A stretch of DNA of 38,154 bases from a virus, in the IMG/VR virus record IMGVR_UViG_3300045988_064121, positions 1 through 38,154 of that record; one strand, given 5' to 3'. This document shows positions 20,843-21,756 of this stretch, piece by piece. A model generated the notes under the pieces. The model was not told the DNA's origin, searched no databases, and saw only the letters and a list, made by a program, of their open reading frames with translations. Within the stretch, counting starts at the first letter, position 1. Every line of letters begins with the position of its first letter. The translations under genes and the position numbers were made by a program.

Positions 20843-20894
20843 TTCTTTAAAAAACTCTTTACACGTATATACGTGTATGTTATACTATATATGT
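20843..20894 (+). promoter_or_regulatory. Promoter-operator copy A: TTTACA (20858) - 17 nt - TATACT (20881) with 16-bp palindrome ACACGTATATACGTGT (20861-20876)
   Basis: Read directly. Near-identical copy at 21706-21756. Confidence 0.7.
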
Positions 20895-20933
20895 GGGTTA
20901 AAGACAAGGAATATTTGTTTTAGGAGGTTAAAT

Positions 20934-21056
20934 ATGAAAACAAATAAAAAAAGCAATCGTAAAGCAGAGACGGTTAACATCTACTTAGAGATTGCTAAAA
21001 ACGTTATTGAAATACTCGCATTTGCAATAACGATTATAAAGAGCTTAGGGAATTAA
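20934..21056 (+). CDS. Small membrane peptide (40 aa)
   Basis: AGGAGG SD. MKTNKKSNRKAETVNIYLEIAKNVIEILAFAITIIKSLGN: basic N-terminus with a hydrophobic C-terminus. Confidence 0.45.
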   Translation: MKTNKKSNRKAETVNIYLEIAKNVIEILAFAITIIKSLGN

Positions 21057-21102
21057 CTCCCTACTCTTTACTTCATTGTACCACATAAAAGGAGGACAAG
21101 AA

Positions 21103-21192
21103 ATGGAAAGACTACAGAAAGTAAAAACGATTCTAGATGTAATTGTAATTGTATTAGGAATTGCATTGTTAGTTGTTTGGTTAGTTAAGTAA
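21103..21192 (+). CDS. Small hydrophobic peptide (29 aa)
   Basis: GGAGGACAAGAAATG context. MERLQKVKTILDVIVIVLGIALLVVWLVK. Confidence 0.45.
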   Translation: MERLQKVKTILDVIVIVLGIALLVVWLVK

Positions 21193-21212
21193 TATATAAG
21201 GAGGAAATAGAA

Positions 21213-21515
21213 ATGTTAAGATGGAATAAACAAATGCATCAGTATGAATCTGATGAAAGCTTAGAAAAAACAATTGAAAAATTTGATGGATATATCGGAT
21301 GTGTATATCCTTCAAATGAATCATCTTACTACATTTGTAGTGGTGGTGATTGTAAGCTATCATATGTGCAATGTTTTGGTGGCGGATTTTACGGAGAAAG
21401 TGAAATTTGCGAAGAATTGTGCATTGGAGAATATACAATGCCTGAACCTTCTGATGAAGATATTGCAATCGCAAATGCGCTCGAAAATTCGATTAAGAAA
21501 GCTCTTGAGGTATAA
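21213..21515 (+). CDS. Cys-rich hypothetical protein
   Basis: AAGGAGG SD. 100 aa with 7 Cys. Confidence 0.45.
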   Translation: MLRWNKQMHQYESDESLEKTIEKFDGYIGCVYPSNESSYYICSGGDCKLSYVQCFGGGFYGESEICEELCIGEYTMPEPSDEDIAIANALENSIKKALEV

Positions 21516-21516
21516 T

Positions 21517-21699
21517 ATGGCTTCAGAAGCAAAGATTAGAGCTAACAATAAATCAAATAAGAATAATACAACGATGATTTGCGTTCGTTTAAGTTACAAT
21601 ACGGACGCAGACATCATAAAGAAATTGGATGAGGTTGATTCTAAAATGGGGTACATCAAAGAATTAATCAGAAAAGATTTGCAGACTAAAAAAAAATAG
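21517..21699 (+). CDS. Ribbon-helix-helix (Arc/CopG-like) DNA-binding protein, candidate regulator of the twin operators
   Basis: MASEAKIRANNKSNKNNTTMICVRLSYNTDADIIKKLDEV...YIKELIRKDL shows a beta-strand plus two-helix pattern. Confidence 0.5.
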   Translation: MASEAKIRANNKSNKNNTTMICVRLSYNTDADIIKKLDEVDSKMGYIKELIRKDLQTKKK

Positions 21700-21707
21700 T
21701 CTGTTTT
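21682..21707 (+). terminator. Intrinsic terminator
   Basis: CAGACTA-A8-TAGTCTG followed by TTTT. Confidence 0.6.
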
Positions 21708-21756
21708 CTTTAAAAACTCTTTACACGTATATACGTGTATGTTATACTATATATGT
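21706..21756 (+). promoter_or_regulatory. Promoter-operator copy B: TTTACA (21720) - 17 nt - TATACT (21743) with palindrome 21723-21738
   Basis: About 51 of 52 nt identical to copy A (one A indel). Confidence 0.7.

Follow-up and report, generated by a model that had tools for sequence, protein, structure and literature searches.

Twin operator-bearing promoters and a putative ribbon-helix-helix regulator frame exchangeable small genes in a temperate Holdemanella siphovirus

The stretch of viral DNA analyzed here, called the window below, comprises positions 1 to 38,154 of the IMG/VR record IMGVR_UViG_3300045988_064121 and belongs to a temperate siphovirus whose host is Holdemanella. Its genes follow the order tail genes, holin, endolysin, accessory module, phage attachment site (attP), integrase, and divergent repressor, and the subject of this study is the accessory module, composed of five small genes and two nearly identical promoter cassettes (cf. 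Table 1). An earlier analysis made from the letters alone (hereafter, the sequence-only reading) had placed it at the usual site of phage morons, between the lysis genes and attP with the integrase, and the positions of the GH25 endolysin and the integrase agree with this. Direct reading and alignment confirmed that the two cassettes, copy A with 52 nucleotides (nt) and copy B with 51 nt, differ solely by one A in an A-run (AAAAAA vs. AAAAA). Both contain the elements TTTACA and TATACT with a spacer of 17 nt, as had been proposed, and in addition a TG one base before the -10 element, which makes it an extended -10 (TTTACA-17-TGnTATACT); with 10 of 12 consensus positions plus the TG, each cassette carries a predicted near-consensus sigma-A promoter. 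The palindrome overlapping the -35 element and the spacer proved to be perfect, as claimed, but longer than the 16 bp first read: the complete dyad, TACACGTATATACGTGTA, measures 18 bp, the 16-mer being its inner part, and in both copies takes in the final four bases of the -35 hexamer together with 14 of the 17 nt of the spacer. These two putative operators are the sole gapless palindromes of at least 18 bp in the window (Markov shuffles average 0.24), no third copy with up to three mismatches is present in its 38 kb (0.10 expected by chance), and the palindrome was not found in the CI/early control region at 23.6-25.2 kb. Since the repeat covers about -50 to +8 relative to the predicted start, it represents a complete promoter cassette, and a terminator-like hairpin with a T-run precedes each copy.

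All five open reading frames of the module are preceded by a Shine-Dalgarno sequence. The gene calls, these sequences, and the hairpins agree with the two operons that had been read from the sequence, namely operon A, in which copy A is followed by two tiny peptide genes (here pep1 and pep2), the gene of a Cys-rich protein of 100 amino acids (aa), the gene of a 60-aa basic protein, and a terminator, and operon B, in which copy B is followed by the gene of a 69-aa protein and its own terminator. In the 2 kb scanned, there are 12 terminator-like hairpins with T-runs vs. 0.5 expected, and the one upstream of copy A insulates this promoter from transcription arriving from upstream. Searches of Pfam, PHROGs, NCBIfam, and PADLOC with the five small module proteins returned no usable match.

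Table 1. Positions of the module elements and of the surrounding phage genes in the window (RHH, ribbon-helix-helix; TM, transmembrane)
Feature	Position	Strand	Remarks
Phage_holin_4_1 holin	16141-16656
GH25 endolysin	19353-20720
Terminator upstream of copy A	20813..20839	+	stem 20813-20832, TTTTTTTATTT tail; 3' end of conserved ~75-nt element
Promoter-operator cassette A	20843..20894	+	A-rich upstream stretch, -35, operator, TG, -10, first transcribed bases
Cassette A elements	-35 TTTACA 20858-20863; operator 20860-20877; TG 20878-79; -10 TATACT 20881-20886	+
pep1	20934-21056	+	40 aa; basic N-terminus and amphipathic/hydrophobic helix; first cargo gene of operon A
Stem-loop TAGGGAATTAACTCCCTA	21046..21063	+	overlaps pep1 stop codon; no clean T-run downstream
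pep2	21103-21192	+	29 aa, single TM helix
Cys-rich acidic protein	21213-21515	+	100 aa, 6 Cys, pI 4.2; variable cargo gene
60-aa basic protein, putative RHH-type regulator	21517-21699	+	last gene of operon A
Operon A terminator	21681..21710	+	stem 21681-21704 overlaps the end of the RHH gene; conserved in relatives
Promoter-operator cassette B	21706..21756	+	-35 21720-21725; operator 21722-21739; -10 21743-21748
69-aa protein	21789-21998	+	slot-B cargo; C-terminus ...YILSRMK
Operon B terminator	21997..22025	+	hairpin 21997-22019 with T-run
attP region	22024-22200		TTGGCATATTTT repeats at 22024-22049 and 22176-22200
Tyrosine integrase	22265-23362	+
HTH_3 repressor	24221-24667		divergent

A scan for the promoter pattern together with a scan for the 60-aa protein retrieved 18 distinct IMG/VR contigs, which with the window make 19 loci (L001, L002, and L003 correspond to the contigs L018, L006, and L012). 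The order terminator, promoter-operator, cargo, 60-aa gene, terminator was found in all 19. In 14 loci the cargo begins with the genes pep1 and pep2, both of which are missing from the other five (L009, L016, L017, L020, and L021), and the interval between pep2 and the 60-aa gene holds zero to four genes from about 10 small-protein families in varied combinations. The Cys-rich gene of the window is replaced by other genes in relatives and has been cut by an in-frame deletion to a 32-codon remnant in L001/L018, whereas in L009 the promoter-operator lies 51 nt upstream of the 60-aa gene with no cargo between them. The module thus has the features of a phage moron, that is, its own promoter and terminator, a position between conserved modules, and variable presence among relatives, as well as those of an anti-CRISPR-associated (Aca) type of operon, the 60-aa gene being the 3'-most gene of operon A in 19 of 19 loci, with variable small accessory genes ahead of it. 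Among 20 cargo proteins of the relatives, family-model searches gave no match to an annotated anti-defence family, except for an ArdC-N domain protein encoded downstream of copy B in L021; no dedicated anti-CRISPR database was searched.

Of the 17 loci with enough sequence past the 60-aa gene, 12 have a second promoter-operator at +203/+205, counted from the start of this gene, and it drives different genes in different phages (encoding proteins of 69 aa; 59 aa; 96 and 87 aa; 93 aa; 68 and 60 aa). In five loci (L001-L003, L014, and L019), the terminator of the 60-aa gene leads straight to attP, copy B and its gene being missing. Since copy B is present in some loci only and is followed by varied genes, this promoter, the gene behind it, and their terminator make up an additional, optional slot for cargo (slot B), which extends over about 21705-22019 in the window. 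The 69-aa protein encoded there has a 96% identical copy in L011/L065, and it shares the C-terminus (I/L)L(S/T)RMK with cargo proteins of 59, 56, and 75 aa from relatives (L005, 4269-4448; L019, 3753-3980; L021, 4271-4441); judging from this ending, they probably form a single family of small, helical, divergent proteins, mostly located in slot B. As further observations on these loci, the contigs L004, L008, and L015 stop where copy B would lie or no more than about 60 nt away, which may reflect assembly breaks at the 52-nt repeat, and a near-identical ribosome-binding-site spacer, GGAGGAACAAGAAATG, begins most cassette genes as well as the integrase gene (21087-21106, 21773-21791, and 22249-22268 in the window, and cargo starts in L002-L021). 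This common junction could serve as microhomology for the exchange of cargo genes.

The operators themselves differ between genomes according to the pattern TACA[C/T/A]GTA[TA/CA/TG]TAC[G/A/T]TGTA, TACATGTACATACATGTA being the type found in L016. The two copies within one genome are identical in 7 of 12 cases, and their mean Hamming distance is 1.0 vs. 2.0 for random pairs (P=0.0002). Several variants keep the dyad symmetry on both half-sites, e.g. ACATGT..ACATGT and ACAAGT..ACTTGT. Loci with more distant regulators have other palindromes: L022/L023, which belong to a distant regulator clade, have TCAATATATATTGA on a TTGACA -35 element, L029 has ATATAACTATATAGTTATAT in the spacer of TTGACA-N17-TATAAT, and L045, L047, L050, L053, and L060 each have a promoter palindrome of their own. 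L061-L063 contain a Cys-rich gene that is 87-88% identical and a homologous scaffold of -10 element and 5' untranslated region, yet their regulators are of another clade and their dyads are different. In L029 (Thomasclavelia), the promoter with its palindrome stands ahead of an operon of three cargo genes plus the RHH gene and again 60 nt past the RHH stop codon, while in L028 the sequence TTAGTATATACT..TGGTATAAT flanks the RHH gene on either side; the origins of these twin arrangements are independent. In L030, a Coprobacillaceae chromosome, the gene of a homologue with 53% identity has TTGCAA-N17-TATAAT, containing TACACGTAAATACGTGTA and an extra half-site, immediately behind it. We also noticed that L061-L063 carry (at 30-680 and 860-1390) a gene for a MazF/PemK-like toxin (PF02452, E=6e-19) and an open reading frame with an HExxH motif just upstream of the cassette.

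The predicted layout of the 60-aa protein consists of a basic N-terminal helix, a β-strand at about residues 19-26, helix A at about 30-40, the loop DSKMG, and helix B at about 46-57. It belongs to a homologous family of more than 7,500 protein clusters, all of them unnamed ("hypothetical"), whose conserved domain corresponds to residues ~1-57 of the 60 and follows the pattern ...KYDKENTxxVxLKLNKNTDADIIxKLExVPSKQGYIKxLIRxD. Pro is frequent in the inter-helix loop of the members, which is consistent with a layout of helix A, loop, and helix B. The family contains natural tandem fusions (P0122 and P0123; 118 aa), and the AlphaFold2 model of P0122 (predicted TM-score 0.65) comprises H3-15, E16-24, H29-37, and H41-55 in its first half and E70-78, H83-91, and H95-111 in its second (H, helix; E, strand). 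Since there are only two strands in this model, they pair with each other, and it accordingly shows two β-α-α units joined by a two-stranded antiparallel ribbon, i.e. an RHH fold, which we carry over to the window protein as a homologue that shares its profile (36% identity). When the P0122 model was compared with the PDB using Foldseek, the F-plasmid relaxosome entries 9F0X-9F12 supplied the top eight matches, all of them to the chains E, F, and G (probability 0.54-0.99, TM-score 0.49-0.57, with 0.55 alongside the highest probability). The F-plasmid relaxosome models hold three molecules of TraY, which is a whole RHH dimer in a single polypeptide (PMC12117103), and we infer that the matched chains are TraY. 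On the strength of these models, we accept the RHH fold for the 60-aa family even though the E-values are marginal, and the label that the sequence-only reading had given to the protein is upheld through the structure prediction of a tandem-fused relative, while no sequence model confirms it. As a side observation, in L032 (a Lachnospiraceae metagenome-assembled genome, 3501-3998) the RHH unit is joined to an extension of about 100 residues bearing a GSYARGEASKDSDVDL motif, which looks nucleotidyltransferase-like by eye.

The two peptides accompany the regulator well beyond the Holdemanella phages. A cargo-free arrangement of palindromic promoter, pep1-like gene, strong stem-loop, gene of a pep2-like TM peptide, RHH gene, and terminator was found in Catenibacterium (L022, L023, L033, L035, and L040), Absicoccus (L027), L053, and L060, and also in GC-rich Oscillospiraceae/Ruminococcus elements (L036-L041), and these loci adjoin a phage amidase gene or sit between terminase and primase genes. 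Since the trio is found without other cargo across distant Bacillota, it looks ancestral, the Holdemanella phages having added the cargo. In each lineage inspected (window, L022, L036-L038, L053, and L060), the pep1 stop codon overlaps or immediately precedes a stable hairpin (z between -1.3 and -4.3) that lacks a clean T-run and whose sequence is unrelated from one lineage to the next. This stem-loop may act in partial termination, or else in processing or stabilization, and in several lineages a ATTATACCAC-like stretch lies 3' of it. Distant pep1 counterparts fall in phrog_7712, a family with no assigned function, all matches in a pep1 profile search are named "hypothetical protein", and one pep2 counterpart (L060) matches Hol_Tox (PF16935) below the threshold (E=0.0034, 17.6 bits vs. 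a cut-off of 23.3 bits). We considered pep1 and pep2 as phage holins and rejected this, since a canonical Phage_holin_4_1 is encoded elsewhere in the window and relatives with and without the peptides carry the same canonical holins; a complementary distribution of the two was thus not seen among the relatives.

These findings led us to hypothesize that the twin repressor-controlled promoters are an autonomous accessory-gene expression unit of the phage, which we consider probable. Copy A would be used to transcribe pep1, the stem-loop, pep2, one exchangeable cargo gene and, as the last one, the RHH gene, whereas copy B would serve a second exchangeable cargo gene. The RHH protein is expected to dimerize via its β-strand and to bind the palindrome, probably with the assistance of the basic N-terminal helix, and once bound it would block RNA polymerase at both promoters, so that its own operon would be under negative feedback and the downstream operon would be repressed along with it. 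The genes would thereby be expressed in a burst on entry into a naive cell and then held at a low clamped level, lysogens included. Judging from its position and architecture, the cargo, which comprises two membrane peptides and small proteins that are often very acidic, most likely has a part in conflicts of the phage with its host or with other phages, serving either anti-defence or superinfection exclusion. In the sequence-only reading, both promoters were proposed to be under the control of the RHH protein acting on the palindrome, and this proposal gains substantial support of a comparative kind. This support comes from the following observations: (i) twin promoters recur, including those of L028 and L029, (ii) operators within one genome match and co-evolve, (iii) palindromes are specific to regulator clades, (iv) L009 is a minimal unit of promoter-operator and RHH gene, (v) the regulator and a palindromic promoter are associated on the chromosome in L030, and (vi) the palindrome is absent from the CI region. 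Taken together, they make local autoregulation the most economical reading.

Several results weigh against this hypothesis. Pfam, NCBIfam, and annotated PHROGs contain no RHH match for the window protein or for 24 members of its family, a profile of these 24 members found nothing at E<=10 among PDB sequences, and PADLOC gave no match for the 60-aa protein either. The Foldseek E-values for the chains assigned to TraY are marginal (0.04-0.5), and the AlphaFold2 monomer of the window protein itself, built on a shallow alignment of close relatives, consists of two long helices and no strand; its predicted local distance difference test (pLDDT) is 59 over residues 21-30, and a monomer is unable to form an intermolecular ribbon. 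With respect to recognition, the β-strand of L030 differs while its palindrome is nearly the same, so that the code from residue to base is not clean, and L061 and L063 have identical β-strands but different dyads. These two cases do not fit a simple recognition code from β-strand to operator, which we therefore rejected; since the N-terminal arms of L061 and L063 also differ, there is a hint that the N-terminal helix adds specificity. The similarity of operators within a genome could have another source in gene conversion between the repeats. The twin arrangement is rare outside the Holdemanella clade, one of 32 loci being positive in a test for repeated 13-mers (L029 only, about the control rate) and L028 being recognized by eye, and we rejected it as a general trait of the whole RHH family. 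Finally, family-model searches with the cargo genes of the window matched no known defence or anti-defence family.

An unlikely alternative, though one with arguments of its own, is that the module is a toxin-antitoxin or abortive-infection system, in which pep1 and/or pep2 would be membrane-damaging toxins (type I or Hol-Tox like) and the RHH protein the antidote, acting as a repressor or as a direct binder. The 29-aa single-TM peptide pep2 and the amphipathic and hydrophobic pep1 would suit such a role, and the occurrence of the trio without further cargo in elements of Catenibacterium, Absicoccus, Oscillospiraceae/Ruminococcus, and additional Bacillota speaks for a closer tie in function than a regulator would have with arbitrary cargo. 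The weak Hol_Tox match also points this way; however, it concerns one distant pep2 and lies under the cut-off, and the peptides of the window match nothing, so that a Hol-Tox assignment comes down to the presence of TM peptides without a model match at threshold. The RHH domain moreover occupies the whole 60 aa, leaving no C-terminal toxin-binding tail, and no toxin family was matched among the window proteins, which speaks against a type II system. Five loci (L009, L016, L017, L020, and L021) hold the promoter-operator and the RHH gene without either peptide. A type I system with an antisense RNA was rejected as well: the sole antisense promoter-like site (21219-21191) has its -35 element inside the variable cargo gene and lacks conservation among relatives, and an Rfam search found no antitoxin RNA. 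We thus found no evidence for a toxin, holin, or abortive-infection role of the cargo, and the guess of the sequence-only reading at a toxin/immunity, exclusion, or abortive-infection module gained nothing from the searches, since no defence, toxin, or holin model was matched, the antisense promoter is not conserved, and the canonical holin is located elsewhere.

The palindrome might instead be the site of another regulator, such as a CI-type phage repressor or a host factor, with the 60-aa protein otherwise employed, e.g. in a ParR-like or partition-like role, given that the most distant viral match (L024) is a 92-aa protein encoded directly after a ParM-like ATPase, i.e. ParR-like. We regard this as highly improbable, because the palindrome occurs nowhere else in the window, the control region of the phage repressor included, because palindromes switch along with the RHH clade across unrelated phages and hosts, and because L009 consists of the promoter-operator and the RHH gene alone. 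It is even harder to credit that the two copies are no more than the scar left when a constitutive promoter was recently duplicated or recombined, the dyad being non-regulatory or acting as a hairpin/terminator for antisense transcription. The near-identity of the copies, the single copy in five relatives, and the terminator-like score of the minus-strand palindrome with the following AAGAGTTTTT would agree with such an origin. However, the second copy occupies a fixed position in 12 genomes ahead of at least five different downstream cargoes, symmetric substitutions preserve the dyad, analogous twin promoters of unrelated sequence exist in L028 and L029, and no minus-strand gene converges on either copy. 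Control of both promoters by the RHH protein therefore remains the reading that we prefer.

The surroundings of the module provided several further observations. Between the endolysin terminator and promoter A lies an element of about 75 nt (20762-20840), which starts with an extended -10-like TGTTATAAT and ends with the terminator stem 20813-20832. Its retention in 13 related loci, where the endolysin ahead of it is of three different types, suggests that it may encode a small RNA; it has no Rfam match, and a small RNA pairing with the operon mRNA was rejected, as the best duplex (-20.2 kcal/mol) equals the shuffled mean (-20.1). On the other side of the module, attP contains four TTGGCATATTTT repeats, which are likely integrase arm sites. 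A comparison with the loci L025 and L026 (3680-3830) of two Holdemanella genomes places the phage-host junction after ...CTGTCCGATTCTTATATAATA (~22120-22140 in the window), since the phage sequence stops there and the cca gene comes directly next. In these two genomes, the prophage has been reduced to the RHH gene with its terminator and to the attP-left sequence, so that only the RHH gene plus an attR remnant is retained. The shared core ...TTATATAATA at this junction resembles the -10 element of cca, and a prophage would thus supply the upstream region of this gene. The pep1 homologues carry the label Holdemanella sp., and BLAST against 50,697 phage records found no match for the module (distant mode) or for 20 kb of the window (near mode). 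As to the lysis genes, the holin gene is located 2.7 kb upstream of the endolysin gene, with tail-fibre-like genes between them; the gene preceding the endolysin (18777-19214) encodes no TM segment, and the endolysin has a low-complexity linker followed by an amphipathic basic tail ending ...INQIIALILKILKKVSKLFK. The first gene of the early rightward operon, beside the HTH_3 repressor (24908-25189), encodes a 93-aa ArdC-N domain protein associated with anti-restriction (PF08401, 29.9 bits), and its homologue is the protein found downstream of copy B in L021 (5036-5302).

If the proposed control is real, the 60-aa family, with its thousands of members and no database name, would be a guilt-by-association handle for anti-defence and exclusion genes in Gram-positive gut phages, which are hard to study, and the operator together with the RHH gene could be used as a search key for new genes of phage-host conflict in gut Bacillota. 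Control of accessory operons by a small autorepressor encoded last has been established mainly for helix-turn-helix (HTH) Aca proteins in Proteobacteria, the RHH case, Aca14, being only recent, and the same logic would operate here in phages of a common human-gut Firmicute. The module would also offer a compact, well-defined part composed of promoter, operator, and repressor, and the conserved pairing with two tiny membrane peptides may indicate a separate function. Tentatively, we would go one step further and suggest, as a possibility rather than an expectation, that the 60-aa protein founds a large RHH family marking repressor-clamped cargo slots in an Aca-like manner, and that pep1, the stem-loop, and pep2 are an ancestral membrane-acting module (for exclusion, toxicity, or signalling) into which exchangeable conflict genes have been inserted.

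Systems of this kind have been described before; the novelty here lies in the regulator family, the peptide trio, and the layout of twin cargo slots in phages of gut Firmicutes. Arc/Mnt (P22 immI), CopG, and omega (pSM19035) are RHH autorepressors of 45-70 aa, some with an N-terminal arm, whose dyad or repeat operators overlap the core promoter. The window protein resembles them in its small size, its predicted fold, and an operator dyad that overlaps core promoter elements, but sequence similarity is undetectable, the regulator gene is the last one here, and the biological context is another. With phage morons, e.g. the lambdoid ones, the module shares its own sigma-70-type promoter and terminator, a position between conserved modules beside attP, and variable presence. 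To our knowledge, classic morons have not been described with a dedicated repressor or with two co-regulated promoter cassettes as cargo slots, and the dedicated repressor and the two co-regulated cargo-slot promoters proposed here set the module apart from them. Among the HTH-regulated anti-CRISPR (acr) operons, Aca11 and Aca13 also control an adjoining downstream operon (PMC13551039), and the N-terminal domain (NTD) of AcrIIA1 represses Listeria acr promoters via a palindrome (bioRxiv 10.1101/787200). Like these operons and those of Aca1/Aca2, the module has a strong predicted promoter with a palindromic operator and small, fast-exchanged cargo genes followed by a conserved autorepressor (or, in some acr systems, fused to it); unlike them, its regulator is predicted to have the RHH fold and its cargo is not recognized as anti-CRISPR. 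The Listeria acr locus is reportedly situated in a similar place, beside the lysin gene at the prophage end, as Rauch and colleagues are said to have described in 2017.

By its control architecture, the closest known system is the csx20-aca14 operon of Pasteurella multocida, in which the RHH protein Aca14 is encoded last in an anti-defence operon, binds the inverted repeat of its own promoter and a highly similar repeat in the promoter of the next operon downstream, and represses both promoters; for an extra helix of Aca14 outside the RHH core, DNA contacts are predicted (Nucleic Acids Res 2026, PMC13551039). The present module likewise has the gene of a small, putative RHH protein at the end of a short accessory operon on a mobile element, an inverted repeat inside the operon promoter, and a similar repeat in the neighboring downstream promoter (in the window and also in L028 and L029), and the basic N-terminal helix is a candidate counterpart of the extra helix. 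The two differ in that Aca14 is called an RHH-domain protein, whereas the window protein matches no Pfam, NCBIfam, or PDB sequence model, and in that the Aca14 operator overlaps the -10 element, whereas the operator here lies on the -35 element and spacer. No recognized acr or other anti-defence cargo accompanies the regulator here, the system is phage-borne in a Gram-positive gut host of the Erysipelotrichaceae, and, unlike Aca14, the 60-aa family appears to have been linked ancestrally to two small membrane peptides.

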